Shown: positions 35,621 through 53,358 of the stretch, piece by piece | How the letters are laid out: every line of letters starts with the position of its first letter | Position numbering within the stretch: the first letter of the stretch is position 1 | Assembly (NCBI GenBank): GCA_964553245.1 | Contig: CAZKJM010000001.1 | Location: 362,667-426,666, forward strand | DNA length: 64,000 nucleotides | DNA from: an uncultured Gammaproteobacteria bacterium | GTDB taxonomy: Bacteria; Patescibacteriota; Microgenomatia; Levybacterales; UBA12049 | Reading direction: 5' to 3' | Translations under genes and position numbers: made by a program | The notes under the pieces: model-generated | The model's database searches: none | What the model was told of the DNA's origin: nothing | The model's input: the letters and a program-made list of their open reading frames with translations, nothing else

Positions 35621-35675
35621 ATATCAAAATTAGTATCTAATATAAAATATATTTTGTCAAACTAAAACTAAACCT

Positions 35676-36176: not shown

Positions 36177-36697
36177 TCGAATCCCTGCTTAAGCTTTGGC
36201 GTAAGTTTAATTTCTCTAAAAATTTGCAACTTAGAATTATGCGAACCATAAATGCCCAATTTTTAGTTGGGGTAACAGGAGTTATTTTTAACAATAACAA
36301 TGAGGTCTTGTTGTTTAAACATTCGTATAGATCGATTGCTTGGAGCTTGCCAGGTGGGTACATGAAAGGCAAAGAGCATCCAAAAGAAGCATTAGAAAGA
36401 GAAATTAAGGAAGAGTCTAATTTTACAGTCAGCATAGATTGGCGGATGAAAATAAGAACCGATAGACAAACTTCTAGGCTAGATATTCCTTACATAGGAA
36501 CATTTATTGGAGACTCTTTTAAACCTTCCGCAGAGGTCATTGAATTCGGTTTTTTCTCTTTGGACAACCTGCCACATATAAGAACTGACCAACTTTTTCT
36601 GATAAATAAAGCCTTAGAGGAAAGAAAAATATTCTTTAGTACAAAAAAGCTAGCTCCGATTGAAAAAGCTAAAAAGTCAGAAATTGCTAATTTGTAG
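36173..36697 (+). CDS. NUDIX hydrolase
   Basis: Nudix box GGYMKGKEHPKEALEREIKEESN. Confidence 0.6.
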   Translation: MIESLLKLWRKFNFSKNLQLRIMRTINAQFLVGVTGVIFNNNNEVLLFKHSYRSIAWSLPGGYMKGKEHPKEALEREIKEESNFTVSIDWRMKIRTDRQTSRLDIPYIGTFIGDSFKPSAEVIEFGFFSLDNLPHIRTDQLFLINKALEERKIFFSTKKLAPIEKAKKSEIANL

Positions 36698-36837
36698 TCT
36701 CGCTTATAACTTGCTTTTCGGGATTTAATTTTACACAAAGTAAGTTAAAAATACTCTGAAGCTAAAGTTGTTTAAATCCTATATGCTCTGTGCATCAGTC
36801 AAAAAAATTTTTCGGCTTTAGTTATATTATCCAGGAT

Positions 36838-36893
36838 CTGGCTCTGCATGTCGGTCAAGACCAGTTTAGGGTTATAGTCCTACTCGGCTCGAG
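36838..36893 (+). repeat. Family-2 dispersed repeat copy I at left edge of the less AT-rich island
   Basis: CTGGCTCTGCATGTCGGTCAAGACCAGTTTAGGGTTATAGTCCTACTCGGCTCGAG. Confidence 0.55.
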
Positions 36894-37052
36894 AAATGGG
36901 TACAATTTCGGACAACTGACTGGATAAATTACCTGGAATACCCAGAATTCACAAACAAAGAAGTAAATAGATTCCTTAATGCTTAATCCCCAGGTTGATG
37001 CTGTTTGATTTGTTTCCAATTATCTTATGAATATGTATAATTAAGTTGAGGT

Positions 37053-38861
37053 ATGCCGAATAAATTGTCGTTAAAACTAGACAGGGATAAAATTCTTCGC
37101 AGGATCACCAAGATCTCTATCTTCATCTGGCTGGCATGCATTATAGGCGTCTTTGCAATTATGGGTTATGTTGTGGGTATCAGGAAAGAGCTTTTTGATA
37201 AAGCACCTGATGTCTTCGCCTTCTCTCTCCTCGGGTTAATATTGCTCGGTTGCCTTGCCTTTTTAATCGGTGCAATAGGCATTACCGCACAAATTTTATC
37301 TAAGAGATCCCAGAAGAAACAAAACATCTTTTTATTCCTAATTAAACTGTTCTTTGCGCTAGCCATCCTCCCCCTCTACTTATTGGTCGTTATCATCAAA
37401 CCACTTGAAATCGTAAAGAGACTAAAACAAGAGAAATTAAGAGGTTTATTGAAATCCCTGCGTCCAAAGCTAGTTTTAACGAAATTAGTAGCACTTGTAT
37501 TGGTTTGTGCAATTATTTTACCCATCTGGGTTGTTGGATATGTATCTGTTGGTGCTTTGGCTGCGAACCAGCTAGGTTACATAACAGAGGATATCAATAT
37601 CGTAGGAACTGGTTCTATGTATCCGACTTGGGACAAAGGAACAAAGGGTAAAAGCAACAAGGATCTTGCCAAAGAGATAATTACTACCGCGGGTTTCTTG
37701 CCCTATCCAAACGGCATCGTTATTGGTGGAAAAAGATATCTAGGACATACTCTAGGTAGAGGTGACATTATCACCTGGGAAAATGATGCTACAAGAGAAC
37801 TTACAAGTAGAGACGGAGCAAACCCTGCGGGATTGTTAAAAAGAATCATGGGGCTTCCAGGAGACACAATCGAACTTAGAGACGGTATTGTTTATCTCAA
37901 TGGCGAGCCACAAAAAGAGCCATATATTGCCAAACCGCGCTCAACATTCGGGGAAAAGTTTCTAAAAGAATGTCAGGCAGTAACTGTCCCTCAGGATGCA
38001 ATCTTTGCTATGGGCGACAACCGAAAAGGTAGTTCCGACTCAAGAGAAATTGGCTTTGCTCCAATAAAAGACATCCGCCTAGTCCTTCCTCTGGAAAAAC
38101 AGAAGGGAAAGCTTGATAAGAACTGGCACGACGCAACCAATGACTTATCAGACACAGTAAAACCAACAATAGACAGAAACAGGTTTGTCGAGCTACTTAA
38201 CGAAAAACGCAAAGAGAATGGCGCAACTCCAGTGAAATACGAGCCTAAACTTGATGAATCTGCAAAAATACGAGCAGAATCTTTGTTAAAGAATAACGCT
38301 ACTCAACAACAAGCTTCTTACGATGTCGTTTCAAGTGCAATGTCAAAAGCTGGGTATTGGAACAGCTATGTGTGGGAATGGTCGTTAGAGGGTTATTACA
38401 CTGCTGACGAGTTAGTTGAAGACTATCTCGAAAGAGATTCAACAGATGCTAAAAATGTGTGGTTTGATAAAAAGTTTGACGATGTGGGGATTGCAGAAGT
38501 CCAAGGCAACCTAAACGGATGCCCTACACAGCTTATTGTTGTCCATGCTGCTGGCTACATCCCTCCAAGCTATAAGAAAGAGGATATTGAGTCTTGGAAA
38601 ACAAGCCTATCAAGGCTACGAGAAATTCAGCCAAGCTGGTCAAGTCTCAAAAACAACTCAGGTTTCTACGAAAAAAACAAGGCAGATGTTGATAGAATCA
38701 ATGAGATAATTGGAGTAAGAATTGCTAATATTTCAGTAATCGTTTCCAAGATGGAAGCTAATCAGTGGTTAAGCGCTACCGAACAGAGGATGATCGATCA
38801 GGATAAACCTCTGTATGACGAGCAGGAAGCCATAGCAACCAGGCTTAACAGCCAACATTAA
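37053..38861 (+). CDS. Polytopic membrane protein fused to signal peptidase I (S26) domain and C-terminal CAP/SCP-like domain
   Basis: Approx 5 N-terminal TM; S26 boxes GTGSMYPT (Ser), KRIMGLPGDTIELRDG, GDNRKGSSDSRE; C-terminal ~230 aa with NVWFDKKFDDVGIAEV ... TQLIVVHAAGY reminiscent of CAP/YkwD fold (low confidence for CAP part). Confidence 0.55.
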   Translation: MPNKLSLKLDRDKILRRITKISIFIWLACIIGVFAIMGYVVGIRKELFDKAPDVFAFSLLGLILLGCLAFLIGAIGITAQILSKRSQKKQNIFLFLIKLFFALAILPLYLLVVIIKPLEIVKRLKQEKLRGLLKSLRPKLVLTKLVALVLVCAIILPIWVVGYVSVGALAANQLGYITEDINIVGTGSMYPTWDKGTKGKSNKDLAKEIITTAGFLPYPNGIVIGGKRYLGHTLGRGDIITWENDATRELTSRDGANPAGLLKRIMGLPGDTIELRDGIVYLNGEPQKEPYIAKPRSTFGEKFLKECQAVTVPQDAIFAMGDNRKGSSDSREIGFAPIKDIRLVLPLEKQKGKLDKNWHDATNDLSDTVKPTIDRNRFVELLNEKRKENGATPVKYEPKLDESAKIRAESLLKNNATQQQASYDVVSSAMSKAGYWNSYVWEWSLEGYYTADELVEDYLERDSTDAKNVWFDKKFDDVGIAEVQGNLNGCPTQLIVVHAAGYIPPSYKKEDIESWKTSLSRLREIQPSWSSLKNNSGFYEKNKADVDRINEIIGVRIANISVIVSKMEANQWLSATEQRMIDQDKPLYDEQEAIATRLNSQH

Positions 38862-38862
38862 T

Positions 38863-39045
38863 ATGAGTAAGGATAAAACACTACCAAAGTTACTAACAAT
38901 TAAACAGGCTTCAGAGATCCTTAATGTGCATGTGGAGACTTTGAGGCGTTGGGACAAGCGTGGGAAGCTCAAAGCCATAAGGGTAAACGAGCGCGGTGAC
39001 AGGCGTTACCGCCCAGAGGACATAGAAAAATTAATGAAAATATAA
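38863..39045 (+). CDS. Excisionase/MerR-type HTH (HTH_17) DNA-binding protein
   Basis: 60 aa, LTIKQASEILNVHVETLRRWDKRGKLKAIRVNERGDRRYRPEDIEKL. Confidence 0.55.
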   Translation: MSKDKTLPKLLTIKQASEILNVHVETLRRWDKRGKLKAIRVNERGDRRYRPEDIEKLMKI

Positions 39046-39046
39046 T

Positions 39047-41629
39047 ATGAACAACTTATATCAACAATTAAAATCAGATGTAATTAACTGGAGACAGCAG
39101 GGTTATCCCTCCTCCTATCCCGTCATTGCAACCGTTCTCAACTTCAACAAAAACAACTTTCTAAGACAAGCACAGTTTGAAGCCTTAGAAACTTACTGGT
39201 ATCTGCGCCTAGTTAAGAACACTCCAAATATCTTTGAACTTTATAAAGGGTATTTTCAAGGCAAAGACCTACTCAAAGCCCTGGGAATATCATTATCAGA
39301 AGAAGACTTAACCGATCTTTTGCTAGCTGGCGGCGGACTAGACTCCATTATCGAGAAAGTTAGGACTGATGATACCTTTGTTAAGAAATACAGGCTAGAA
39401 GCCCTTAGAGAAACCCTTACACTTCCATATCCCAGCTACATCCTCGCCCTGGCGATGGGAGCGGGTAAGACAATTCTTGTTGCCTCTATTATAGCCACCG
39501 AGTTTGCTATGGCACTTGAATACCAGGAGAAAGACGGGATCTTTGTCAGGAACTCCCTCGTCTTTGCACCAGGAAAAACAATTCTAGGAGCATTGAAAGA
39601 AATTGCCGATACTCCCTACGACAAAATCCTACCCGCACGATTCTATAAGTCCTTCATCACCAATGTAAAGTTTACCTACACTAGAGATGGCGAAAAGGAT
39701 ATTCCCGTTATTAGAGGCAGTTCCTTTAATGTAATTGTCACTAACACTGAAAAAATCAGACTACAGAAAAATAGCATTCCTAAGTCATTCCTGGGCACAC
39801 AATTGAGCCTAGGATTAGAAGAAGCCAAAGAACTTGTTGCCAACCTGCGCTTACAATCAATCACCTCCCTACCACACTTGGCAGTCTTTTCAGACGAAGC
39901 CCACCACACTTACGGACAAGCTCTCGCCGAGGATCTCAAGCGAGTCCGCCAAACCATCAACTATATAGGCGAGAAAACTAACCTTCTGGCAGTTATTAAC
40001 ACAACAGGCACACCTTACTATCAACGCCAGCTTTTACGAGATGTTATCTACTGGTATGGACTCTCTCAGGGCATTGAAGACGGCATCCTTAAAGAAGTCC
40101 GAGGCAATATTGTCGCCTACAAAGAGGTTTCAGAGGAAGACTTTGTTATCGATATCGTCAAAGACTTTTTCCAGGAATACAAAGATGTGCGAGTTAATAA
40201 CGGCGAATATGCAAAACTGGCAATCTACTTCCCCCAGGTTGACGACCTAGACCAAGCCAAGCCGATTGTTGAGCAAACACTTATCTCTCTGGAACTCGAC
40301 CCATCAATTGTCTTACCAGTCCATAACAAATCTCCAGAAGACATCAAAGATCTTTTTGACAACCGTATCAACGACCCGCACCTACCTTACAGGGTGTTTC
40401 TGCTAGTTAATAAAGGCACTGAAGGATGGAACTGTCTATCTCTTTTTGCGACTGCTCTGGCGAGAAAACTCTCCTCAAGTAATAATTTCGTGCTTCAGGC
40501 AGCCAGCAGATGTTTAAGACAAGTGAACGGCAATACCAAGAAAGCCAAGATTTATCTCTCCAAAGCCAATGTCTCGGTGCTTGATCGCCAGCTGCAGGAA
40601 ACCTTCGGAGAAGGTTTAGATGACCTTAACCGCGCTAAGACCGACACTTATCCTGTTAAAATTACCCTCAGAAAGCTTGAGATTGAACCCGTTGTTATCA
40701 AGAAGCTCATCCAAAAGATTGTTCCCGAAGACGATACTTCTACCGCCTTGAGGGTCGAGAAGCCCAAATCTGACGCTGTAGCGGGGCTTGAGAAAACTAT
40801 TTACACCATGTCCAAGACCCAGAGGAAGGGCGTCCTGGTCGAGGTTGATAGCGAAAAATCAAAACCCAGAGATGTAAAGGTTGATCTATATCAGGCAGCA
40901 GTCCTGCTTGCCCACACTTATCGCCTTGATTCCCTAGAGATCTTCAAACTCCTTACTCCTCTCTATCATGACGGAGAAATGTCAGTTGTCGACCTGGAAC
41001 TTATCCGACTGCAACTAGAAAAACAGGTTATCAGATACAAAGTTACCACTGAAACCGTTGAAGAAGCCCTGGCGCTTATTAAAACCAAAGGCTTTGAGGA
41101 AGAAGTCGAAGATGGCAAGACCTCGTATGTCACCCATATTAGAGTCAATAAGGACAACCTCGAAAAGTATGTTTTAGATACCAATGCCTACAAAAAGAAG
41201 GCTGGTCAAATGCCTTTGTTTGGTTTTCATTACGATCCATACAACTTTGATTCAGAAGACGAGCGTGCCTTCTTTGAGCAAATGTTGGACAAACTCGGCG
41301 AAGACCCAGATAATGTTGAAGATATTTACTTTACAGGAGCGCTGACAGACAGGGAGAAAACCGATTTTGCGTTTGAATATAAAGACAATAAAGGAGACTG
41401 GCACTCGTATACACCTGACTTTTTGATCAGGAAAAAGGATGGCAAGTCCCTTATAGTCGAAGTCAAGGGCAAGCCATACAGGAATGAGGCGGCAGAGAAG
41501 GAAATGAAACAACTAGAGGCGATAAATCCTGATAAAATTAGATATGAACTCCTGCTCTTAGAGGAAGGCGAATCGGTGTTTGGTAAAGTAGCACCAGTCT
41601 TTAATTGGATTTACCAAACCCAAAAATGA
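39047..41629 (+). CDS. res: Type III restriction endonuclease Res-like subunit (SF2 DEAH helicase + C-terminal PD-(D/E)xK nuclease)
   Basis: Walker [17 protein letters not shown] box VFSDEAHH, motif [11 protein letters not shown]-terminal TPDF...LIVEVKGK nuclease motif. Confidence 0.65.
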
Positions 41630-43515
41630 CTATGACAAACGATACAACCAAAAAAATTAAAATCGGCACACCAAACGGCAGACCCATGCTAACCTGGGTG
41701 AACAAGAAACCCCTTGAGTCAGTTACTGGCTATCCCACACAACTTACCGAGAGTTTCGGAGATAAAGAGGCACTTAAAGTGCCTGAATACAACAAGCTAG
41801 AAAAGAACTGGCACAATCTCCTCTTCCACGGCGATAACAAAGAAGTCCTCGCCTCCCTCCTAGAACAAGGATTCAGAGGAAAAGTTGATTTGATCTACAT
41901 CGATCCTCCTTTCGCAAGCAATAAAGATTACATGCGGAATATTGAACTAAGAGGTTTGAAAAACCTGGGACAAATTGAAGAAGATAGTGAATCTATTATT
42001 CAACAAACGATGTATGAGGATATTTGGAAAAGAGATGAGTATTACCAATTCATGTATGAAAGACTAATTTTGTTAAAGGAATTACTTTCAGAAAACGGTG
42101 TTATTTATCTCCACATCGACTACAGAGCCGCTCATTATATGAAAGTTCTTATGGATGAAGTTTTCGGTGAAGATAACTTCCTAAACTCACTTGTCTGGAT
42201 GTTTTCGACAAGAAGTTCCATCAAAACAACCTGGAAAAGAACTCATCACGATATTCTTCTTTACAAGAAACATGGTGATCCTGTTTTTAACTGGAATGAC
42301 GAAATGGTAATTGAACCCCTTTCTGAAAGCACGATCTCAAAATACAAGTATGAAGACGAAGTTGGTAAATATAGGCTAAACGGTAGGAATATCAAAGGAA
42401 GTCCGATTAAGAGCGCAAAAGATGTTGATCCAAAATGGGAAGAAACAAACCCAGAATGGGTGGTAAGAGATTACTTAAGGGGAGGTAAAGTAGCCAGTGA
42501 TTATTTTTTCATCGAGATAGAAAATCAGGCATCAAAAGACAGAACTGACTACGCAACACAAAAACCAGAAGAATTACTTTATAAACTTATTTCTGCTTCC
42601 TCAAAGCCAAATCAACTAGTGTTAGATTGCTTTGTTGGCTCTGGAACAACCTGTGCTGTAGCTCAAAAACTTGGTAGGCGATGGATTGGTGTTGATGTCA
42701 ACAAGGGAGCTATTCAAGTAACCAGTAAGAGATTACAGAAAATTATTAAGGAACAAAACAAAAAACTTCTTGACGGACAAATTAGCAAAGCCTTTGGAAT
42801 CTATAAGGTCAACAATTACGATCTCAGAATTCTAAAAACAGAGGCTAAGGAACTGGCAATTCAGCAATATGGAATCACCAGGACAAAAACAGAGGCTTTC
42901 TTTGATGGCTTACGGGATAGTGGTGAGCTGGTAAAAATCATCGATTTTAATCACCCACTTACGCTCCTAGACCTGCAACTCATCAAAGATGAACTCGACA
43001 AACGACCTGACGAAGACAGGGATATTGTCGTGATCTGTCTAGGCAGAGAAACAAAGGTAGATTCCTGGGTTGAGGAATGGAACAAAAAGCAACCTCACAA
43101 AGACGCGCGCACCAGTCGCCGCATGAGGCAATTCGTCGTCTTTGATCTTAAAGACAAGAACTTTGTCAGTTACGAGCCTTCCAAAGCTGAAGTGGAAATT
43201 ACCAGAGCGGGCAAGAATAAAGCAAAAATTAAAGTTACTTCCTTTATTTCCCCCACTATCATCAAGCGCTTGGAGCTTGAACCAGGATTGCTGCAGAAAA
43301 AAATTCCAGATTTCAGATCAATGATTGATGTCGTCTTGGTTGATACCAACTACGACGGCGAGGTGTTCAAAATTGGCTTCTCTGATGTCCCAGAGAAACA
43401 AAACGATCTGGTCAAAGGAGAATACGAACTTGAGATAACAGAAAAACCAACCAAAGCGGCAGTCAAAATCATTGACATGTTAGGAGAAGAAGTCTTGGTT
43501 ACCAAAGAAGTGTAA
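41605..43515 (+). CDS. mod: Beta-class (motif IV before motif I) DNA methyltransferase, type III Mod-like
   Basis: [13 protein letters not shown]...[18 protein letters not shown] (motif IV DPPF) followed by [26 protein letters not shown] (motif I); 25-nt overlap with res. Confidence 0.65.
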
Positions 43516-43546
43516 CCAGAACTTCTCCGAAAAAATACCTGTAGAC

Positions 43547-43572
43547 GACTGCCCTTAATTGGGCAGTTTTTT
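43547..43572 (+). terminator. Rho-independent terminator after mod
   Basis: CTGCCC-TTAATT-GGGCAG hairpin followed by TTTTTT. Confidence 0.55.
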
Positions 43573-43580
43573 GTAGAAAT

Positions 43581-44126
43581 ATGGCAAAAAATCAAATAAC
43601 AACAAACAGCGACAAACTCATCTTTGAGGAAATCAAGGAACGGCTAAAAGATCAGCTTGATTCGGTAGACAGTATGGATACAAAGGCTGGGATAGTCCTC
43701 GGCTTTAATGGAGCAATTTTAGCTGCCCTACTTAACTCCGACTGGTTTAGAACTCTTCCAATTTACTTCTTAGGTTTCATCTTGTTGGCAATTTGTGTGA
43801 CAACTGGAGTTGCCCTAAAAGCATTTCTCGTCAGAGCTTATAAAAAAGACCCAGACCCCTCGAAGTTAATCGAAGGTTATCAAGGAAAAAAAGAAAATGA
43901 GACACGAGGGCAACTAATCAGAAACTTTGAGAAGTGTTTCAATAACAACAAAGAAATGATTGAAAACAAGAAGAAATATATAAATTGGAGTTTTAAGCTA
44001 TTGGCTTTAACTGTAGGGATCGTTGCATTTGTTGCTCTTATAACAACTTTTATTAACAACGCAAATTATTATTCTCCATGGAGAATGCATAGACAGGAGG
44101 TGACCAAACATGGCAGATTCAGATAA
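43581..44126 (+). CDS. Small membrane protein (2 adjacent TM + third C-terminal TM) with cytoplasmic helices, SLATT/abortive-infection-effector-like topology
   Basis: 181 aa; TM at approx 36-52, 58-82, 136-160; topology only, no sequence motif. Confidence 0.4.
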   Translation: MAKNQITTNSDKLIFEEIKERLKDQLDSVDSMDTKAGIVLGFNGAILAALLNSDWFRTLPIYFLGFILLAICVTTGVALKAFLVRAYKKDPDPSKLIEGYQGKKENETRGQLIRNFEKCFNNNKEMIENKKKYINWSFKLLALTVGIVAFVALITTFINNANYYSPWRMHRQEVTKHGRFR

Positions 44127-44334
44127 CACACAACCACAACCAAGCCAACAAGTTAATACAACACCCACCCCTCCTGCGCCAGAACCAAGCAACATACCGC
44201 CAAGCGCAGATCAAAACCTATCCTCGACAATGAATAAAGGTTTAACTCCAAACTCGAGTATCTCAGCTAAACCCGATGTTTCATTGAATTCGACGAAAAC
44301 TATGAACGAGGACGGCTTGAGGATAACCAAATAA
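44110..44334 (+). CDS. Pro/Thr/Ser-rich low-complexity small ORF, in frame with downstream 1141-aa ORF (separated by TAA-TAT-ATG)
   Basis: 74 aa; may be non-coding or an N-terminal extension if stop is read through/erroneous. Confidence 0.2.
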   Translation: MADSDNTQPQPSQQVNTTPTPPAPEPSNIPPSADQNLSSTMNKGLTPNSSISAKPDVSLNSTKTMNEDGLRITK

Positions 44335-44337
44335 TAT

Positions 44338-47300
44338 ATGATCGATTTATACCAAGGTAAGCTCGATAACCAGAAAATTAAACAAAAAATAAGAAGGCGC
44401 AATTACTCAGGTAATTACAAGCCTTCCGAATCATTGATACAAGATATCATTGAGCAATTTTGGTTTCACGATCATTACAACAGTCTTATATCTGACGAGC
44501 TTTACCTTAGCTTTTTACTTAGTTACCTAAAAAGTACTAAACCTCGCGAATTCAGTCGATACGATTTCTATAAATTCATTTTTGATCAGATCGATAAGGA
44601 ACCTAGTGGAAGAGTAATTTTGCAGCAGATTGCTCTTGCGTTTGAGAAACAGATGAGCGATGCAATGCTACCAGATGACTACACTACCCTCTTACAAGGT
44701 GTTGGGAATATACCAGATGGTAAATTTGACGCTTTGTGGATGGATAAAAATCACCTCGCGAAGATAGGGAAACGGGACGAGAAAGAATTATTCATTTGGG
44801 AACATCACACTTTAACCGAGTTTTTAGTTGCTGAGAACTTAGTTAACCAAGACGAGAAAGTTATTGAGGAATTTCAAAAGTTAGCAATCTTAAAACACGA
44901 GGGCGTAACTGCTTTCAAGCCGTCTTGGTCTGGTGTTTTGCGTTTCCTAATGGAATCTGAAAAGGGTCAGAAGACAATTGTATGGTTTATGGACTTTCTG
45001 GAAAAACATCCAGACAATTTAGATGACAACCTGGCAGAACTATTGGTTTACGAGATAAAAGGTCAAGCCTCAAAGTTGGGACAAAGAGTTTTTAATCTTA
45101 TTTACAATTCTTACTTTGACAAGGTAACCTGGATGCCAATTTGGGCAAGAGTCAGTTTATCAAAGTTCGTTGATAAACAATCATATGAACGATTAAAAAC
45201 CGACATCAAGGTTTGGTCTAATAAGACTGAAACTTTTGTGCGTCGAGGGAATGTCGTTTCAATCGTGGAAGGGTTACTAAAAGATAAAAATAAATTAGTT
45301 AGTGCAAATGAGAGAAAGTTCTGGCTCTCAAAACTAATTGAGTTTGCTAATAGTCCAGACGATGATGGAAATGGCGTTTTACAAAGACATAGCCTGGGAG
45401 CATTAGCTCAATATAAAGACGAGAAGATCATACCCAAAGTAGCACAGAAGTGTTTCAAGGAAACACGAGAATCCCTAGTTAGAGATGAGTTTACAGAATT
45501 CTGTATTGCTACCAATCCAAATTCCGAGGAGGCTATAAACTATTTTATTGAAGGAACTCCAAGTATTTACGCCCGTCATGGACTTTATCAAATCACTTCA
45601 CAAAAAGGAATTGAATATTTCCTTTCCAAGATTGTTGAAGATGAAAACTTTTTGAGGGTATTTTTGGACAAAGAAAGTATCTTTGATGAGGATGGTAGCG
45701 ATAAAAAACTCATTAATAACATTAAAAGACATGTTAACAATAAAGTGATTCCTTTATTGAAGAAACTCATTTATACCGTCATGCGGATAAGTGATTATTA
45801 TCATGAGGGACAATCCAGCTTTCTCCGTCAGATAATCCAATTAATAAACGGGCACGAACCTCGTTATCTATTTGAGATGTTGACAGACATAAAAAATGAA
45901 AACGATGAACAAAAGATAGATAGACTTTTTTGGGATTCAAGAGAACTGCTTGCACTTGCTTTAACCAAAGAAAATGTAAAAGAATACTTTGACTTTCTTA
46001 AGGATTTCCCAGACAGAACAAAAAGGGATGCACAATCTGTCGTTTATAGCGCGAAACGACTGAATGGAGTAGTTGGCGACCATGTCTATCAAGAGGCAGT
46101 TAGGCTGAAACTTGTTAAAAAAATCGACACAAGGCAATCAGAGAAATACTACGAAAAACAGGAGAAACAACGGAAACAAGGTATTTACAAGAGTTTCCTC
46201 AAACAACTCGAGTCAAAGCCAGGACAATATCTAACAAGTGTGTTTGAATACTTCACAAAAAACAAAGAGGAAATCAAAAAACAGTGGAAAGCTAACGATC
46301 AGAAAAAATTATGGAAAATAGCGATAGAAATAGGCATTAGAAAAATCAACCCGCGTGAATTTAAAGTAACACTCTCAAACAGGAAAGAAGGGAATAGCTC
46401 CTTCACCTGGAGCGCACCAGCATCATATTATGGCGATTTACTCAAAGTTGTTCAGGAATTAGCTCCAGAAGAAATTGAAAAATATAGACAAAACATCATT
46501 GATTATATTCCCTACGAATTCGATACAGGCGCGCCAGCAGATTTCATTAAGCAATTAGACGATAAAGATTTGGTATGGGTTAATCAGATAATGAGTGACC
46601 AGAGCGATGATCGTCGTTATCTCATACCACAAACTTATATTTATTTAGTTAGTGAATATGCTAAAAATGGAAGCAAACTTACTACAGTTAAACCAGTTCT
46701 GCAATCCTTTATTACTGATCCAAATATTCGAGACTATGTTCAGCGTTCTGCTCTTGAAGCCATCGCTTTCTTTATTGATAAAACCGACAAAGAAACTAAA
46801 AAATTACTCAAGGATATCTGCGCACATTCCAAAGACCAAGAGCTTGTCGAAATAGCAAATGGTATTTTGATCAGTATTTACGAAGATGAAAAAGCTATTG
46901 ACTGGCGCTTTGCAAAGGTTAAAGAACCGTTGGAGTTTCAAAGAGTCGAGGGGGTTCATTCAGTTGGTCGCGTTGAAGAAGAGTTGATGAGTATGTCCTT
47001 AGCCAAACCATTAATGGAATTAGGTGATGAAAAATACTTACCTAAATTCCTTGACTTATTAGAGTACTCGTTCAAGTTTACTGAAGGGAAAAGCGATAAG
47101 AAATATTGGGAATATGTTAACTACCTTTGGAAAACAGCAACACAGTTTGTAGACGGACTTAAAAGAAAGGGGTCATTTATCCCCCTTATGGAATTAGAAG
47201 GTTGGATCGAGGAACATTCTCAATACGAGAACATTAACTGGCTCGAGGCTCGTATAAAAGAGATTAAAAGAAATTATCTTAATCTCGTACATCCTTTTGA

Positions 47301-47763
47301 TAAATTAATAGACGGGATCGATGAACTCGGTAAGGTCAACTCGCCCACAGCTCAAATCGCTTTGTTTTTGTTTAAGGCACAACTTGTTGAAACAAGATTG
47401 CGAGAACTGATCTTAGGCATTAACTACTTTCTACAGAAGAAAAATAGCAAACTGCCGATTTATAGAAAAATTAACAGCGAAACCAGGAAATGGATAAAAA
47501 ATTTGACACTAAGTAAATTGTGTGAAGAGTTAAATAACTATCAAAGTGCATCGGTAGAAAGGTTAAAGAGTAAGTTAGGGCAATTTGCCCACTCCGAAGG
47601 AAGAAATAGATTTAACCATGAATTGTTTAATCAGACTAAGCCCGTGCAAGAATTAGCAGAAGAAGCAAAACAATATACAAAATTTGCTGAGGAAAGTTTA
47701 GACTTGATCCACAAGGTGTGGGAAGAGATCCTCTCTATTAGCACAAACAACTCGACAAACTAG
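44338..47763 (+). CDS. Large alpha-helical repeat protein with post-NACHT-like motif (FIWEHHTLTEFLVAENLV) but no Walker A; candidate STAND-derived/defence-associated protein
   Basis: 1141 aa; no GxxxxGK[ST] anywhere; motif F-x-H-x-T-x-x-E-F-L-x-A-x-x-L at aa ~150 resembles the helical region following NACHT NTPase; remainder HEAT/TPR-like helical repeats. Confidence 0.45.
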   Translation: MIDLYQGKLDNQKIKQKIRRRNYSGNYKPSESLIQDIIEQFWFHDHYNSLISDELYLSFLLSYLKSTKPREFSRYDFYKFIFDQIDKEPSGRVILQQIALAFEKQMSDAMLPDDYTTLLQGVGNIPDGKFDALWMDKNHLAKIGKRDEKELFIWEHHTLTEFLVAENLVNQDEKVIEEFQKLAILKHEGVTAFKPSWSGVLRFLMESEKGQKTIVWFMDFLEKHPDNLDDNLAELLVYEIKGQASKLGQRVFNLIYNSYFDKVTWMPIWARVSLSKFVDKQSYERLKTDIKVWSNKTETFVRRGNVVSIVEGLLKDKNKLVSANERKFWLSKLIEFANSPDDDGNGVLQRHSLGALAQYKDEKIIPKVAQKCFKETRESLVRDEFTEFCIATNPNSEEAINYFIEGTPSIYARHGLYQITSQKGIEYFLSKIVEDENFLRVFLDKESIFDEDGSDKKLINNIKRHVNNKVIPLLKKLIYTVMRISDYYHEGQSSFLRQIIQLINGHEPRYLFEMLTDIKNENDEQKIDRLFWDSRELLALALTKENVKEYFDFLKDFPDRTKRDAQSVVYSAKRLNGVVGDHVYQEAVRLKLVKKIDTRQSEKYYEKQEKQRKQGIYKSFLKQLESKPGQYLTSVFEYFTKNKEEIKKQWKANDQKKLWKIAIEIGIRKINPREFKVTLSNRKEGNSSFTWSAPASYYGDLLKVVQELAPEEIEKYRQNIIDYIPYEFDTGAPADFIKQLDDKDLVWVNQIMSDQSDDRRYLIPQTYIYLVSEYAKNGSKLTTVKPVLQSFITDPNIRDYVQRSALEAIAFFIDKTDKETKKLLKDICAHSKDQELVEIANGILISIYEDEKAIDWRFAKVKEPLEFQRVEGVHSVGRVEEELMSMSLAKPLMELGDEKYLPKFLDLLEYSFKFTEGKSDKKYWEYVNYLWKTATQFVDGLKRKGSFIPLMELEGWIEEHSQYENINWLEARIKEIKRNYLNLVHPFDKLIDGIDELGKVNSPTAQIALFLFKAQLVETRLRELILGINYFLQKKNSKLPIYRKINSETRKWIKNLTLSKLCEELNNYQSASVERLKSKLGQFAHSEGRNRFNHELFNQTKPVQELAEEAKQYTKFAEESLDLIHKVWEEILSISTNNSTN

Positions 47764-47874
47764 CCACCGTGACCGCGCGTAGCGGCTTGTGTGAGGCTTT
47801 CGTGCCTGGGGTGGCATAAGATTACCTTAATTTAGCTTCGGAAGCCTTGTTGGAGCTGTGTTGAGGAATGTCCG

Positions 47875-48747
47875 TTAAAGCTTATCGATGTCCCAGCCCT
47901 CATTGTCGTAGACGGCAATTTGACCACCTTGAGTAATAGTGAGACTAACCATTGGGTAACGAGTTGACTTGGTTTTGAGACACCAGACACCCTGATCGTT
48001 CTGGTAAGCACCTTCGCGGGTATTGTCAGCATCCCCACATTCCTCAAACTCCTTGGTGAAGGGTTTGGTGTAGTCATACCACTTTACAAAGAAATTACCT
48101 GGTTTTGTGCCTTCGAACTCGTAAGTCATCTTGGTGATATCAACACCAAAAATATCCTTATGCTTAGTCATGAAGTCCTCAGCTACCTTGCGGATCTGCT
48201 CCTTAGTGGTATAGCGGGGAGTATTGTCATATTCAGGCATATTTTCGAACCAACGAGTGCCGTCATCCTTAGTCCCCCAGCGACGCTCGGCTTCACCTAC
48301 CTCAACAATGTAATTTGTCTTAGGATCGATAGTGAAACCAAACCGAGCAGCTTCGTAGTGTTCTGAGGCGGGATTATTATAATCAGTTCCACTCTCGTCA
48401 GGCTTGTTATTAAATCGACTACAGAGGAATTCTACAGGAATATCAGACATACCTAGGAACTCACGGATATTAGCGATAGCTTTTTCCCTTTCAGCAACAG
48501 GGCGCGCAGTTAACAAGCAAAACTTCTGTTGAGCTTCTTGATACTCTTGAGAGTCCTTATTAGGGTTCTTGCTCATAATAGCCAGAAGCTCAGAAACCTC
48601 TTTGTCCTTAGTGTTTTGTTGCACAGTCTGAATGACTTTTGATTTAGTAAGGAAGCGAGGAGCTAGAACAACAACTAGGACAGCAAGCACAGAGAGGAAA
48701 ATAATAGCGGGAAGAATCCGAGATTTATTTTTATGTTTCATTATCAT
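47875..48747 (-). CDS. Membrane-anchored exported protein of unknown function
   Basis: N-terminal TM ILPAIIFLSVLAVLVVVLA then soluble Cys-containing domain. Confidence 0.45.
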   Translation of the reverse strand: MIMKHKNKSRILPAIIFLSVLAVLVVVLAPRFLTKSKVIQTVQQNTKDKEVSELLAIMSKNPNKDSQEYQEAQQKFCLLTARPVAEREKAIANIREFLGMSDIPVEFLCSRFNNKPDESGTDYNNPASEHYEAARFGFTIDPKTNYIVEVGEAERRWGTKDDGTRWFENMPEYDNTPRYTTKEQIRKVAEDFMTKHKDIFGVDITKMTYEFEGTKPGNFFVKWYDYTKPFTKEFEECGDADNTREGAYQNDQGVWCLKTKSTRYPMVSLTITQGGQIAVYDNEGWDIDKL

Positions 48748-48887
48748 TTTTACCTCCTCTTGGTTAAATTAATAACTTTACCCTAGAGGTGTTGCATATT
48801 AACTTCGTTGAGGGGAGATTGTCAAATCAAACCAAAAAGCTCCCCCCAGCGATGACTTGCGTCACCTGCCACCCTTTCGGGAGACAG

Positions 48888-48926
48888 CCTCGTGAGCGCT
48901 CTAGGGAGAGCTTATTGCTCACGAGG
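48888..48926 (+). other. Nested hairpin element: CCTCGTGAGC [GCTCT-AGGG-AGAGC] TTATT GCTCACGAGG
   Basis: 10-bp perfect outer stem plus 5-bp inner stem, in 440-bp intergenic region. Confidence 0.45.
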
Positions 48927-49115
48927 ACTTGTTTAACCATGCCCATTACTGGGTTTAGGTCGTTAGGGATATTTTACCAATCTTAGAGGAAATAAGAAAT
49001 AACAATCAGAAATAACTAAAAGTGGAGATAATGTGAGCAAAAGTTAACTTGACTTTATATCTTTAATTTGTTTGAATGAGAATAGATTTAGGAAGTAAAG
49101 CCTAACGAAACGATC

Positions 49116-49175
49116 GGGGCTGTGGCTTCTGAGTATACGCACTCGCGTGTATTTAGAAGTTACAGCCCCTTTTTT
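49116..49175 (+). terminator. Long imperfect hairpin (GGGGCTGT ... ACAGCCCC with nested TATACGC-ACTC-GCGTGTA) followed by TTTTTT; terminator or attenuator 15 nt upstream of the 49190 ORF
   Basis: Stem 49116-49123 / 49162-49169, T-run 49170-49175. Confidence 0.45.
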
Positions 49176-49189
49176 GTTGCCTAATAACT

Positions 49190-49435
49190 ATGAATACACT
49201 TAATAACGATTATTACTCAACCAGCGACCTCTCACTGGCTACCACCCTCTCTCTTTGGTGTCCTATTGAAGATATTGACCGATCAAATCCCCGTAAGGCT
49301 TTGTTCATTTTCCAAAACACAGGAAAGCTTCAAGAACTTGTTGCTGAGTATTACCGCGACGAAATAAAAATATCGCCACAAGTTTATTTCAACCAATTAC
49401 GAGTCGTGAAGGCGCGGCTCTATGCCAATGGATAA
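49190..49435 (+). CDS. DUF5659-like small protein
   Basis: 81 aa; STSDLSLATTLSLWCPIEDIDRSNPRKALFIFQNT...ELVAEYY pattern recalled for DUF5659 (mobile-element associated). Confidence 0.4.
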   Translation: MNTLNNDYYSTSDLSLATTLSLWCPIEDIDRSNPRKALFIFQNTGKLQELVAEYYRDEIKISPQVYFNQLRVVKARLYANG

Positions 49436-49620
49436 CTATGATAAGCAGAAACCTATTACTAGAACTAAAACAGATCTTGGAAGAAGACTATCGTCTCAAA
49501 TTAACTATCCAGGAAGTGATGGAGATTGCCATGACTTTATTAGGGTACACCGAGACATTACTCAAGATTGAAGGAAAGAAAATGAATACCAGTTAGCAGA
49601 AATCTTAAATAAAAATAACT

Positions 49621-49974
49621 ATGACAATCACAATTAATGACATTACCGTTAAAGTCAAATTGCTTAAATCCGACACCATCTTAGCTCAGGCAACAGTAAT
49701 ACTCTTCGATATTTGGATAGAGCATGGTTGGAAAATCCTAAAGTCAGATCGGCTTCATCCCCAATTACAAGACTATGTTTGGATTCAAGCTCCTAGTTAT
49801 AAATTTATCGGTAAGTGGAACGAAATCGTTTTTATTGACGATAGCAAGCTGTTTGATCAGGTTGTGGAGAAGGTCTACGACGCTTATCACCTTGCCAGAA
49901 GCAAAGATCCTAATTACGGAACCAAAGAACCTGTACCAACAGAGGAGGTAAACCTAGATGACATCAACATATAA
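49621..49974 (+). CDS. SpoVG-like protein
   Basis: ITINDITVKVKLLKSDTILAQATVILFDIWIEHGWKILKSD...VWIQAPSYK resembles SpoVG (ITDVRLR...AIASITLD..FVVHDIRVIDG...FVAMPS). Confidence 0.35.
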   Translation: MTITINDITVKVKLLKSDTILAQATVILFDIWIEHGWKILKSDRLHPQLQDYVWIQAPSYKFIGKWNEIVFIDDSKLFDQVVEKVYDAYHLARSKDPNYGTKEPVPTEEVNLDDINI

Positions 49975-50063
49975 AACGCATAGTAACTATATAGGGATTT
50001 ATAAAGGGACATTTACAGTAACAATTTTTCCCTTTAAGAGGGAATGTATTAAAAAGTAACTAT

Positions 50064-50522
50064 ATGAAGAAATCAATAAAAACATTAAGAAACAAAGATA
50101 AAGAATTACGCGACGAGTTGCCATTTAATGAATTTGTAACAAAGCTCGAAAACGAATCTAATCTCCAATACGCAGTATTTCTACTTTACTGTGAGTCAAA
50201 AAGTATCACCGATCTTACGAGGCAGTTGGCGGTGGAAGTTGGTCACAATGAGGGCAGAATGAGTACGGTTTTACGGCATTTTAAGGCTAATTTATCAAAA
50301 CGAACACTTGAGAGATGGAGCAGTAAATATTTCTGGGTCAAGCGCAAAGACGAACAAGTAAGAATATTCTCCAGAGATCTCGTCAAAATAATACAAGAGG
50401 ATGAGCAAAAGAAAGCGGAGGAATTTATCAGAGCCTTGAGTTCCGTCAATAGATTAATTCCAGAAGATGGAAGGAGATTTAACGGGCGAAACTTCAAGAA
50501 AAATAAGGAGGGCTGCAAATGA
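50064..50522 (+). CDS. Hypothetical phage-like regulatory protein
   Basis: 152 aa, charged, no motif. Confidence 0.35.
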   Translation: MKKSIKTLRNKDKELRDELPFNEFVTKLENESNLQYAVFLLYCESKSITDLTRQLAVEVGHNEGRMSTVLRHFKANLSKRTLERWSSKYFWVKRKDEQVRIFSRDLVKIIQEDEQKKAEEFIRALSSVNRLIPEDGRRFNGRNFKKNKEGCK

Positions 50523-50625
50523 CGGTAAAACTGCTCCATATTGACGCCAAAATGACTCCAACTATTGGGGTCTTTAGCTTGATATTCCTTAAATGTTTGT
50601 TTATGTTGTGTGTTGCAAAATAACT

Positions 50626-52233
50626 ATGAAAACTGCCATATTCTGCCGAGTAAGCAGTAAAGAACAAGAGGAAACAGGCTACTCCCTGCCAGCCCAGGAA
50701 AAGTTCTTAAACGAGTATCGAGACAAGCGTGGGTTTGAATCGGGAAAAGTATTCTCCATCTCTGAATCCGCGAGCGGAAAGAAACAAAGACAGTTATTCG
50801 ACCAGATGATGGCGTATGTCAAAAAAACCGATACGAAAATCTTAATCTGTGAGAAGGCAGACCGAATGACTCGCAATTTCAAAGACATGGTTATGATCGA
50901 TGAATGGCTTGAGGAAGACGAGGAAAGAGAAGTTCACCTAGTTAAAGACTCTCTTGTCCTTAATAAGAATTCCCGCTCCCAAGAAAAATTAAACTGGGGT
51001 ATCCGTATCCTATTTGCGAAAAACTACATAGACAACCTATCCGAAGAAGTAAAGAAGGGACAAAAAGAAAAGATTGCCCAGGGGTGGCTACCAACCAAAC
51101 CGCCAAACGGTTACAAGACCATTGGTGAGACTGGGCATAAAATCCATGTCATCGACGAGGACACCGCTCCTTTTGTGAGGAAAATGTTTGAACTATATCT
51201 CACAGGCAACTATTCAACTAAACGGTTATCCAAGAAAATGTATGCCGAGGGCATGAGATCGCAATTAGGGCACAAGCTTCCACACAGCAGAATCCATTCC
51301 CTGCTGCGTGAACCTTTTTATATTGGTAAAATTAAATGGAACGACGAGTTGTATGAAGGTAAACATCAGCCGTTGATTACCGTCGAGCAATTTAATAAAG
51401 TCCAGGCTATGCTTACTAGCAGAACCACACCCAAATACCGCAAGCACAATTTCCTCTTCCGAGGGCTTATCAAATGTGCTGGTTGCCACAACTCAATCAC
51501 CTTCGAAACGGCTAAGGGTCATATTTACGGTCATTGCAACCATTACCATGAATGCCCACAAACAACCTGGGTCAAGGAATATGAAGTTGAAGATCAGCTT
51601 TTAGAAGGCTTTGAAACCTTAAAAATCCAGAATGGTCGTATTGTTGATTGGCTTAAGAAGGCGCTCAAGGAAAGCCATCAAGACGAGGTTGAATATCACA
51701 ACAGCACTGTTAGCGAGCTTGAAGCCCGCTATGAAGCGGTGCAGAAGCGATTGGACAAATTGTATGACGATAAGCTCGATGAGAAAATCACTTCAGACTT
51801 CTACAACAGAAAATTCAAACAATACTCAGATGAGAAAGACGAGGTAACTGAGTCTATAAAGAAACACTCCCAGGCAAGCACAAGCTACATCAACTTAGGA
51901 GTGAACCTCTACGAGCTTTCACAGAGAGCCAAGGAGTTATACCTGCAAGCGAGAGCTAAAGGCATGATAGATGAGCAAAGGGCATTAATCAGGTTTATCT
52001 TCGCCACATTAACGGTTAATGAGGGAAAACTCAGCTATACCTACAGCAAGACATTTAAAATCCTCTCTGAGGCAGTCGAAGCGACCAACGGTTCGAAAGT
52101 GGATAAAACAGACGACTTGGAAAATAAAAAATTCGAACTTACAAAAAAGCCCGACAGTTCAACACAAAAGGACGCTTTGTTGCCTCTGCGTCCCATCTGG
52201 CTCCCCCGCGAGGATTCGAACCTCGAACCTTGA
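50626..52233 (+). CDS. Large serine recombinase (resolvase catalytic domain + recombinase domain + zinc ribbon); 3' end overlaps 3' exon of tRNA-Asn
   Basis: N-terminus MKTAIFCRVSSKEQEETGYSLPAQ (catalytic Ser), central recombinase domain, Cys cluster CAGCHNS...CNHYHEC; start taken at ATG 50626 (track ORF from 50593). Confidence 0.75.
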   Translation: MKTAIFCRVSSKEQEETGYSLPAQEKFLNEYRDKRGFESGKVFSISESASGKKQRQLFDQMMAYVKKTDTKILICEKADRMTRNFKDMVMIDEWLEEDEEREVHLVKDSLVLNKNSRSQEKLNWGIRILFAKNYIDNLSEEVKKGQKEKIAQGWLPTKPPNGYKTIGETGHKIHVIDEDTAPFVRKMFELYLTGNYSTKRLSKKMYAEGMRSQLGHKLPHSRIHSLLREPFYIGKIKWNDELYEGKHQPLITVEQFNKVQAMLTSRTTPKYRKHNFLFRGLIKCAGCHNSITFETAKGHIYGHCNHYHECPQTTWVKEYEVEDQLLEGFETLKIQNGRIVDWLKKALKESHQDEVEYHNSTVSELEARYEAVQKRLDKLYDDKLDEKITSDFYNRKFKQYSDEKDEVTESIKKHSQASTSYINLGVNLYELSQRAKELYLQARAKGMIDEQRALIRFIFATLTVNEGKLSYTYSKTFKILSEAVEATNGSKVDKTDDLENKKFELTKKPDSSTQKDALLPLRPIWLPREDSNLEP

Positions 52234-52478
52234 AGTTACACTTAATCTCCGATTTTCATCGAAGCGTGGACTATCTCATAGCCATATCTTCTTCAGATTT
52301 AGGCTCCAGGCGTATAGTCTCTGAACCTTCCCCGATATAATCGAGACTTGGCTGCGGATTACCTCGCATTTCTGCAGGGGCTTCCCGACAATTAACCCAG
52401 TTTTCACTCCGATGTTTCCATCGAAGGCTGCAATTTCAAATACTACAGCTTCCTGCTCTACCATTGAGCTACAGGGGA
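52198..52478 (-). tRNA. tRNA-Asn(GUU) interrupted by a ~206-nt group I intron in the anticodon loop (exons complement 52445-52478 and 52198-52238, CCA encoded)
   Basis: Exons give UCCCCUG-UA-GCUC-AAUGGUA-GAGC-A-GGAAG-CUGU/UAA-CUUCA-AGGUU-CGAGG-UUCGAAU-CCUCG-CGGGGGA-G-CCA; U1:A72, G73 and loop CUGUUAA as in bacterial tRNA-Asn. Confidence 0.7.
52239..52444 (-). ncRNA. Group I self-splicing intron (no ORF)
   Basis: Contains AAUCCGCAGC (Q), GUUCAGAGACUA (R), AAGAUAU..AUAGUCC (S), P-like AAAUGCGAGGUAA; P1 pairing GAAGCUGU with GCAG(C)CUUC gives U.G at 5' splice site; last intron nt is G. Confidence 0.7.
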
Positions 52479-53224
52479 ATATCTGCTATTTTACCATCAA
52501 ACAGAGCAAGAATCCACCCCATAATTTTACGATGTATCATGGAATCACTAAAGCGAATAGTAAAAACGCCATACTTGTGAATGTTTTTTCTAATTTTTTT
52601 AGTATCTTTTTTTATTTTAGCGATATAAGTTTTATTAAACTGATTTAGCGGAATTCCTGTCAATTTTGACCAAAATATTTTTGCCTTTTTTTCATCTAAT
52701 TCTTCATGAATCCAAATCACTCCTCTAATTCTATCTGGGGAAATCTTGGTAAATCTTAAAAACCATTGCATCATAAATTTAATCAACAGAGGGTCGGAGT
52801 TAGCAAATCCTACATTATGATCTCTTTTGGTTCCCTCAGCCGCATATAAAGCAACCCCTGCTATAAAGCTTTCCCTATCATTTATTTTTCCTATGTCTTT
52901 TCTTGCCTCTTTTCTTGCCTTGTTCGTCTTGAGTATTCTTTCCTGGCGCTTATTTTCAGCAGCAACCAAAGACCCTCTCTTCTGACCAAACATTTTATTA
53001 CTTAAAAGTCTTAATTTTTGTTTTTCAGTCAAAGAAATATCTTTACACCAATCACTTAAGGTGCTTTTTTGCACATCAATCTGCCGTTGAATTTCTCCAT
53101 AAGACAAACCTTGCCTTCTTAATTCTTGCGCCTTTAATTTATCTTCCAATCTACCAAAATAGCCCATTAATTTAATCTTAATCTGCGAACTATCAAAAAA
53201 CAAGTGAGTAAGGATATATACCAA
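52469..53224 (-). CDS. HTH-containing protein with a single LAGLIDADG-like motif (possible homing-endonuclease relative), abutting 5' end of the intron-containing tRNA
   Basis: HTH SYGEIQRQIDVQKSTLSDW; ESFIAGVALYAAEGTKRD resembles a degenerate LAGLIDADG; AT-rich like host genes. Confidence 0.3.
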   Translation of the reverse strand: MVYILTHLFFDSSQIKIKLMGYFGRLEDKLKAQELRRQGLSYGEIQRQIDVQKSTLSDWCKDISLTEKQKLRLLSNKMFGQKRGSLVAAENKRQERILKTNKARKEARKDIGKINDRESFIAGVALYAAEGTKRDHNVGFANSDPLLIKFMMQWFLRFTKISPDRIRGVIWIHEELDEKKAKIFWSKLTGIPLNQFNKTYIAKIKKDTKKIRKNIHKYGVFTIRFSDSMIHRKIMGWILALFDGKIADIPL

Positions 53225-53358
53225 GGTTCGAATAATTAAAGCTTCTTAAAACTAAGAAGTTTTACTTGTCATCATAGTCAGAGTTGTGGAGCATATAGCA
53301 GGTTTCATCTCTACGATTATCTGAAGCTTAGTAAACAAAAAGGGGTAAAGTTATAAAA

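Follow-up and report, generated by a model that had tools for sequence, protein, structure and literature searches.

What placed a block of DNA of unlike base composition beside a tRNA gene in a Patescibacteria chromosome, and why does the recombinase gene that closes the block run into that tRNA? The locus lies in a stretch of 64,000 nucleotides (contig CAZKJM010000001.1 of assembly GCA_964553245.1, positions 362,667 to 426,666; hereafter the window, whose own numbering is used throughout), in which an earlier, sequence-only reading had seen an integrated island of about 15 kb with defence-type cargo and a recombinase at its tRNA-proximal end. The analysis reported here bears that view out: both attachment (att) junctions could be located, the element is missing from a sister strain, and relatives sit at tRNA-Asn in many unrelated hosts. 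The island is a bona fide integrative genetic element, and window 36891-52203 was very probably placed by its own large serine recombinase (LSR), which would have joined the attachment site of the element, attP, to the 3' tip of tRNA-Asn(GUU), acting as attB. Few mobile elements of Patescibacteria have been characterised, and the acquisition of defence and accessory genes by reduced genomes is poorly understood; the locus defines a widespread family of small integrative elements at base-pair resolution.

A foreign island that ends inside a tRNA-Asn gene

The composition of the island is foreign. GC content over its 15,313 bp (36891-52203) is 0.402, against 0.305 in host DNA to the left (1-34543) and 0.326 to the right (52479-64000). 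In a 1-kb profile GC stays near 0.30 as far as 37 kb, runs at 0.35-0.45 between 37 and 53 kb and is about 0.32 thereafter, and 3-kb windows show no overlap between island (minimum 0.365) and host (maximum 0.346). Tetranucleotide distances to the host mean separate the two completely (island windows ≥0.336, host windows ≤0.196), and GC3 is 0.36-0.51 in island genes and 0.18-0.34 in host genes. The composition shift noted earlier at about 36.9-52.2 kb is therefore real by sliding-window GC, tetranucleotides and GC3 alike. The left boundary needed correction: there is a composition break, but the junction lies at 36886-36890 and not at 36830.

The gene that closes the block (50626-52233, + strand) encodes, as had been proposed, an LSR, whose domains were confirmed by Pfam. 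Its likely start is 50626 because the resulting 535-aa product, the integrated form, is the form on record. The Resolvase domain (PF00239) scores 68.5 bits against a cut-off of 23.3 over residues 15-164 of the 546-aa open reading frame (ORF), the Recombinase domain (PF07508) 62.9 bits, and the zinc ribbon (Zn_ribbon_recom, PF13408) 25.7 bits against a cut-off of 25.3. The RVSS motif, which holds the catalytic serine, is conserved in sets of 21 and 56 homologues, Cys284, Cys287, Cys304 and Cys310 are invariant in LSR homologues, and long helices in the AlphaFold model of a homologue (337-441) correspond to the coiled-coil insertion. By domain order and motifs, then, the enzyme is a bona fide LSR. 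It is not a Ccr recombinase: the NCBIfam CcrA, CcrB and CcrC models give 67-84 bits against cut-offs of 700-900.

Run with default settings, ARAGORN reported no tRNA in the window, because an intron hides the gene. With introns allowed, it returned tRNA-Asn(GTT) at c[52198,52478] with a 206-nt intron at position 35. The target tRNA-Asn(GUU) thus occupies 52198-52478 on the minus strand, with its 5' exon at 52445-52478, a group I intron at 52239-52444 and its 3' exon at 52198-52238. Since the LSR stop codon ends at 52233, the recombinase gene overlaps the 3' exon on the opposite strand by exactly 36 nt, a figure that the sequence-only reading had given as approximate. The last 10 codons of the LSR (PREDSNLEP plus stop) are an antisense reading of the tRNA.

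Attachment sites and the proposed integration event

A search for att half-sites at both ends of the block identified them. Three-way alignment of attL, attR and the attP-type site of a related locus, L030, places the crossover core GGCTC at 36886-36890 in attL and at 52199-52203 in attR. The attR core equals tRNA positions 71-75, covering the last two bases of the acceptor stem, the discriminator and the CC of the CCA end. GGCTC is all that attL and attR of the window have in common; the minimal common block across the family is GCTC. The LSR gene of L030 has no tRNA at its 3' end, and its attP-type sequence runs uncut from ...GCGTCCCATCTGGCTC into GAGAAATGGGTACAATTTCGG. Window attR has the left arm of L030 and then continues as tRNA sequence, CCCCGCGAGGATTCGAACC; window attL comes out of host DNA, ...TAGTCCTACTCGGCTC, and continues as the right arm of L030. 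Window 36886-36925 is 100% identical (40/40 nt) to the 3' end of the L030 LSR gene.

Directly right of the attL core, at 36891-36986 on the plus strand, lie the P' arm and the displaced last 31 recombinase codons with their stop (EKWVQFRTTDWINYLEYPEFTNKEVNRFLNA, then stop). This assignment draws on the L030 identity, on a hidden Markov model (HMM) of the tail (64 bits, E 2.7e-17) and on a nucleotide profile of P' arms; the latter, built without the window, matches 36887-36929 at E 4.8e-8 and gives nothing below E 0.4 in the rest of the window. A P-arm profile, likewise built without the window, matches 52153-52204 at E 1.5e-15. Joining the P and P' arms of the window restores an ORF that ends RPIWLEKWVQFRTTDWINYLEYPEFTNKEVNRFLNA and matches the tails of homologues that do not adjoin a tRNA. 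The host-side (B) arm of attL, 36841-36890 on the plus strand, coincides with a copy of a repeat, D2, the last 5 nt of which are the crossover core. A repeat of this family had been placed exactly at the left composition boundary; there is indeed a copy at 36841-36890, but it is on the host side of attL and has no demonstrated relation to the att arms.

From these arms the predicted attP reads ...GCGTCCCATCTGGCTCGAGAAATGGGTACAATTTCGG... and the predicted attB ...TAGTCCTACTCGGCTCCCCCGCGAGGATTCGAACC...; excision is predicted to yield attP GCCTCTGCGTCCCATCTGGCTCGAGAAATGGGTACAATTTCGGACAAC and attB GGGTTATAGTCCTACTCGGCTCCCCCGCGAGGATTCGAACCTCG. The tRNA arm has TTCGAAC at +12 to +18 from GCTC, and the P' arm has TTCG(G/A)AC at +17 to +23, which is 5 bp further out. 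This offset fits the shift between attP and attB described for serine integrases, the model for the Listeria integrase having a zinc-ribbon motif shifted by 5 bp between attB and attP (PMC3783163).

We propose that the LSR joined attP of the element to the 3' tip of tRNA-Asn(GUU), with the crossover falling within the common GCTC, where the discriminator passes into the CCA end. Because attP, as predicted here, lies inside the recombinase reading frame, insertion would detach the last 31 LSR codons and carry them to the far end of the element (36891-36986), and the lost codons would be replaced by 10 read antisense from the T-arm and acceptor stem of the tRNA. The tRNA itself remains intact, the element arm supplying its terminal CA and probably also a terminator hairpin. 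Such a hairpin, followed by a U-run, comes directly after the tRNA 3' end (52166-52194, minus strand), antisense within the recombinase ORF, in the P arm. In relatives its z-scores are -3 to -5.8 and the stem sequences differ; individual folding supports a hairpin plus U-run in five of six. It may serve as an element-supplied replacement terminator for the tRNA, since the host's own downstream sequence would have been displaced to attL. We infer both the polarity of the event and the present ability of the element to excise. The geometry had earlier been called the classic one of tRNA integration. The recombinase end does overlap tRNA-Asn, but the arrangement is not of the classic tyrosine-integrase type with a long duplicated tRNA segment; it is that of a serine-integrase event with a common core of 4-5 bp.

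Junctions of this kind could also be produced in assembly or binning, by the joining of foreign DNA to a host contig at a repeated tRNA-like sequence. The composition jump does coincide with contig-internal junctions, and an ENA contig of the region of the tRNA and the 251-aa gene stops at 52266, within the intron and roughly 60 nt away from attR. On the other hand, both junctions are reproduced without a mismatch in two other assemblies (an ENA contig and a Logan contig) of samples that have different accessions, one covering 12.3 kb across attL and the other 19.7 kb across attR, which argues against misassembly. The same geometry, moreover, recurs in dozens of genomes assembled by others. 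We consider an artefact next to impossible.

Two C-termini of one recombinase

Integration by the proposed route would be visible in the recombinase protein, and two kinds of C-terminus do occur among its homologues. Most of more than 100 homologue C-termini (56-90% identical) are strings such as RPIWLPREDSNLEP, which result when a tRNA 3' end is translated in antisense: W, encoded by TGG, is CCA read on the opposite strand, and DSN, encoded by GATTCGAAC, is the T-loop read in the same way. In a minority the ending is a different, conserved peptide, W..FRT..W......PE......V..LL. The exchange is one of 31 C-terminal residues for 10 tRNA-derived codons.

Between the window and L030 the DNA of the tail diverges past its first 35 nt and the protein stays similar; the displaced tail is also intact in many integrated loci. 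That protein similarity outlasts DNA similarity, and that the tail is intact in so many loci, suggests selection on the tail peptide, as judged from these alignments. The DNA site itself can account for part of the conservation (DFRT, encoded by GATTTTCGAAC).

A family of related elements in Patescibacteria

A scan that took one genome per species gave 172 relatives, of which 80 loci were kept; all are from Patescibacteria metagenome-assembled genomes, bar a few that are apparently mislabelled. The protein database holds more than 3,700 related recombinases. In 60 of the 80 loci, ARAGORN places the 3' end of a convergent tRNA 30-111 nt (mostly 33-42 nt) inside the LSR ORF; 12 loci have no tRNA at the LSR end, and about six end at a contig edge and are not judgeable. 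The targets are mostly tRNA-Asn(GUU), together with seven tRNA-Gln (core GCTG) and one tRNA-Leu. With a protein profile of the tail, at least 12 integrated loci were seen to have the displaced fragment 5-11 kb upstream of the tRNA and on the same strand; in each of these, attL and attR have only GCTC in common. P arms are nearly identical across elements, and tRNA arms vary with the sequence of the host tRNA. None of the 80 loci has the genes of the window's host flanks (NUDIX, LapA-like, a 440-aa protein, MgtC); genes of the element do recur.

LSRs only 23-29% identical to that of the window (loci L089, L098, L101, L105 and L107) also end inside the 3' end of tRNA-Asn, so that several recombinase clades share this target. 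Literature searches found no description of this Patescibacteria recombinase family, which is apparently both large and undescribed.

Strain variation and stacking at the tRNA-Asn site

A metagenome scan with the 3' half of the tRNA recovered a contig of a sister strain (L095, Ga0302253_1002038) that matches window 34408-34543 and the intron-bearing tRNA at 97-98% identity. Those two points enclose 9.9 kb of different DNA and no recombinase, so the LSR element is strain-specific; the strain-variable locus spans 34544 to the tRNA. Had relatives carried the same block at the same place with host-like composition, integration would have been in doubt; what was found, a sister without the island and a real GC shift, favours an element. 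As for an empty tRNA-Asn site in relatives, the sister is free of the element, but its site holds another island and is not bare. That island (149-9909 of the L095 contig) encodes an FtsK/SpoIIIE-like protein, a PD-(D/E)XK nuclease, a HARE-HTH protein, a trypsin-like protein, type I HsdM and HsdR (no HsdS was seen there) and an HTH_3 protein. Window 34544-36890, which carries genes for a 359-aa protein, a LapA-like protein and a NUDIX protein at a GC content of 0.349, is outside the element, yet it too is replaced in the sister strain; it may be older inserted DNA.

Other loci show more than one element end. L027 has an intact LSR with an uncut tail and, 6 kb downstream, a 126-nt remnant of an LSR 3' end fused to another P' arm. 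L097 (Ga0155737_138, 215-3400) has a direct array of four P'-type sites (E 1e-5 to 3e-4) upstream of tRNA-Asn; a shared CAACCTATAGTAGTAGACTTG-like stretch precedes each site, single genes in reverse orientation separate the sites, and the contig has no recombinase. The remnant, the array and the LSRs of other clades together mark the site as a hotspot at which elements pile up and decay, and chromosomal LSRs that keep an uncut tail probably lie inside such arrays.

Two intergenic repeats, all copies on the plus strand, lie to the left of the element. D1 occurs at 21371-21418, 25684-25731, 26220-26267, 26629-26676 and 34486-34533, and D2 at 22279-22328, 35678-35727, 35724-35773 and 36841-36890. 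The nine copies all fall in the stretch from 21 kb to the element's left end and flank single genes or operons, such as Fur-ZnuABC (22414-25656); the region that differs from L095 has its left edge at the D1 copy of 34486. Both repeats were considered as old att scars, given a likeness to P' and P by eye; this was dropped as a claim, the likeness being suggestive at most, and retained as a lead: the arm profiles score them at E 2-10 (one D2 copy at E 0.02), and anchored scoring of all 280 GCTC sites ranks the D1 copies only 4th to 16th.

These loci raise the question of whether it is the element that moves at all. The LSR might be a host-fixed capture system, in the manner of an integron or SCC, with only upstream cassettes bounded by P'-like sites moving and the 15-kb block being an accumulated array. 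The four-site array of L097, direct and without a recombinase, would fit such a resident platform, as would the L027 remnant fused to a second P' arm 6 kb past an intact copy, and the confinement of D1 and D2 to one strand left of the element, with one D1 copy marking the edge of the variable region. Relatedly, cargo and core have different histories: in loci L003 and L004 the restriction subunits are 96% and the methyltransferases 77% identical to those of the window, and the recombinases only 84%. Against these stand the composition of the recombinase, which is that of the element (GC3 0.51) and not of the host, the sister strain without any recombinase, and the occurrence of recombinase and core in unrelated host flanks. 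Nor did a profile search find internal P'-like sites inside the element of the window, and the match of D1 and D2 to the arm profiles is, as above, not significant. A resident platform is on this balance improbable.

A further-reaching version of element integration can be imagined, in which the tRNA-Asn 3' tip is a docking platform that stacks both LSR elements and recombinase-less single-gene cassettes with P'-type half-sites at their borders, again as integron- or SCC-like gene capture and here in very small genomes, the 31-residue exchange is a state sensor that biases the balance of integration against excision, and D1 and D2 are decayed junctions. We regard this as speculative and rather unlikely.

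Observations that weigh against integration by the recombinase

Several observations count against the preferred reading, insertion of the element at the tRNA-Asn tip by its own LSR. A strictly empty attB for this host was not found: look-ups with the flanking proteins (NUDIX, LapA-like, a 251-aa LAGLIDADG-like protein) gave only island-bearing contigs, and the metagenome scan with the tRNA 3' half gave the sister strain with its different island and no bare site. Neither was a free circular copy found, L030 and 15 other whole-contig loci being without terminal redundancy. In L030, RhuM-family and other island-type genes come after the attP-type junction, so that this junction may lie inside a tandem array. 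On the host side, the attL arms, often terminator-hairpin-like, show no relation from one host to another, which is unusual for the attB of a serine integrase. Genes for replication, conjugation and packaging were not detected in the element.

The two accessory proposals, on the terminator and on the tail, have their own difficulties. The hairpin is weak in the window itself (z -1.4), and RNAalifold did not recover a common P-arm structure, since the registers of the hairpins differ. For a homologue that has the tail, the AlphaFold model is confident to about residue 485, disordered over 490-535, which spans attP, and gives the tail helices at low confidence. Because of that low confidence, and because the DNA site can account for the DFRT conservation, a regulatory role for the exchanged tail is put forward only as a hypothesis. 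With the tail at such confidence, a docking site for it could not be proposed.

Gene content of the element

The genes of the element fall into a core that recurs in related loci and a cargo that varies between them. Adjoining the recombinase on its left is the gene for a 152-aa protein (50064-50522, + strand), with homologues in 14 loci and a weak small-terminase-like HTH match (E 3e-4); it is one candidate for a directionality factor. Upstream of it are genes for a divergent SpoVG-family protein of 117 aa (49621-49974, + strand; homologues in 15 loci), a 49-aa ORF that belongs to the conserved core (49422-49571, + strand) and a DUF5659 protein of 81 aa (49190-49435, + strand; homologues in 48 loci). 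A 60-aa HTH_17/MerR protein (38863-39045, + strand) has homologues in 23 loci. The sequence-only reading had named an excisionase-like HTH and DUF5659-like and SpoVG-like genes, and all are upheld: the 60-aa protein matches excisionase families, the DUF5659 assignment was confirmed, and the SpoVG homologues carry PF04026.

The cargo begins with a 602-aa membrane protein (37053-38861, + strand) that has a signal peptidase S26 domain and a weak CAP domain. Beyond the excisionase-like gene come two overlapping genes in the order Res then Mod: a restriction subunit-like protein of 860 aa (39047-41629, + strand), with a ResIII helicase and a C-terminal TnsA/DUF1064-type nuclease, and a type III-like DNA methyltransferase (N6_N4_Mtase; 41605-43515, + strand). 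An earlier assignment of the two as a type III-like restriction-modification pair stands for the methyltransferase as type III class (PADLOC MTase_III, 207 bits, E 1.2e-61, with type II MTase models scoring nearly as well); the neighbouring gene is Res-like and may encode a type III Res, with matches to ResIII (25.5 bits), REase_III (20.7 bits) and BPTD_3080 (59 bits against a cut-off of 800). Next is a PycTM-type membrane protein (43581-44126, + strand; 43 bits) with no cyclase partner among the neighbouring genes, so that this is not a Pycsar system. The large orphan protein that had been noted is confirmed as such: it has 1141 aa (44338-47763, + strand) and no family match, and its only homologue among the fetched loci is in L006 (72%). 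The cargo probably acts in defence.

The sequence-only reading had left open a prophage remnant, and the element could in principle be what is left of a temperate phage with a serine integrase. HTH/excisionase-like, DUF5659 and SpoVG-like genes also occur in phages. One viral contig, L086 (IMGVR_UViG_3300025018_001141), is inovirus-like, with Zot, a G2P-type Rep and a LexA-like repressor, and has a 47%-identical recombinase at its end. It is, however, the one match among 2.9 million viral contigs of IMG/VR, and Zot and Rep are absent from the window and from all 80 genome loci; an inovirus origin was accordingly dropped as a hypothesis. Searches with Pfam, PHROGs, NCBIfam and PADLOC found no capsid, terminase, portal, Zot, Rep, relaxase or secretion genes in the window or in two minimal relatives of 7-8 kb, the Pfam and PHROGs searches of the window likewise found no tail genes, and Pfam found no relaxase, coupling protein/FtsK-like translocase or type IV secretion genes in the element. 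The small core is intact across many hosts, which fits a functional non-phage element better than independent decay. Because phage and conjugation genes were not found and the core of the family is intact, the island is read as a small integrative element; a decayed prophage is very improbable, and the earlier suggestion is not supported.

On the strand opposite the recombinase lies a further core gene, for a 290-aa protein (47875-48747, minus strand) that has no family match and, judged by eye, a hydrophobic stretch at its N-terminus; its homologues are in 18 loci. About 100 nt upstream of it, on the same strand, is a LOOT RNA (RF03000; 48851-48961), at 77.8 bits against an Rfam gathering threshold of 46.4. 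At least 18 related loci have this RNA, in every case directly upstream of the gene for the 290-aa protein. A published context for LOOT was not found in the literature, the paper that describes it having no searchable detail on LOOT; the family thus gives this orphan RNA a genomic home.

Relation to known systems

The nearest functional analogues of the element are SCC/Ccr, SSV-type integrases, phages with integration-dependent immunity, and tycheposons. In the SCC/Ccr system of staphylococci, an LSR inserts cargo at the 3' end of a housekeeping gene without destroying the gene, islands stack, and recombinase-less cassettes persist. The present element differs in using a tRNA gene rather than rlmH and a single recombinase, in belonging to a different phylum and in falling below the Ccr cut-offs. 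Archaeal integrases of the SSV1 type have attP within the integrase gene and a tRNA target, and integration partitions their ORF. Those enzymes are tyrosine recombinases that are split into two large parts, whereas here a serine recombinase would lose its last 31 codons and keep its catalytic and DNA-binding domains. In the mycobacteriophages BPs and Brujita, as Broussard et al. reportedly found in 2013, attP is in the 3' end of a phage gene, and integration at a tRNA swaps the C-terminus of its product and changes its behaviour. There the repressor is swapped and the integrase is a tyrosine recombinase; here it is the recombinase itself, and a functional effect is hypothetical. With the attachment site in the ORF of the integrase, integration would rewrite the C-terminus of the very enzyme that performs it.

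Large serine integrases of phages and integrative and conjugative elements (ICEs), such as phiC31, Bxb1, A118/LI and SPbeta SprA, share with the present enzyme the order Resolvase, Recombinase, zinc ribbon plus long coiled coil, short attP and attB sites with few central bases in common, an outer motif that is 5 bp further out in attP, and an excision that is expected to need a separate directionality factor. They differ from it in that here the target is a tRNA, attP is predicted to be inside the integrase ORF, the carrier is neither phage nor conjugative, and the host-side arm is unconserved. A survey of mapped integrative elements in 2,168 genomes called tRNA targeting by serine integrases previously unreported, saw it in 14 of 297 cases and asked for proof (PMC7192596); the present locus has this very combination of serine integrase and tRNA gene. 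The tycheposons of Prochlorococcus are likewise cargo-carrying, tRNA-targeting elements of a streamlined genome, and 27 of 937 encode a large serine recombinase (bioRxiv 10.1101/2020.12.28.424599). Unlike the present family, they mostly have tyrosine recombinases, many carry replication genes, their core genes differ, and that preprint describes no overlap of recombinase and tRNA. The attP arms and the tRNA target described here are short and well defined, and offer a testable recombination system and a possible genetic tool for Patescibacteria.

The intron of the target tRNA

The intron that hides the target tRNA matches the Rfam group I intron model (RF00028) at 52247-52454 on the minus strand, with 76.3 bits against a threshold of 50. 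As read from the sequence, it is inserted at position 35/36, after U35, with P1 formed by GCUGU and GCAGC, a U.G pair at the splice site and a terminal G. A class of group I introns at 35/36 of tRNA-Asn in Patescibacteria was already published in 2026 (PMC13011429). Among the related loci, L043 and L070 add to the 60 given above two cases in which a recombinase overlaps an intron-bearing tRNA, and intron-bearing target tRNAs occur in about 13 of the 80.

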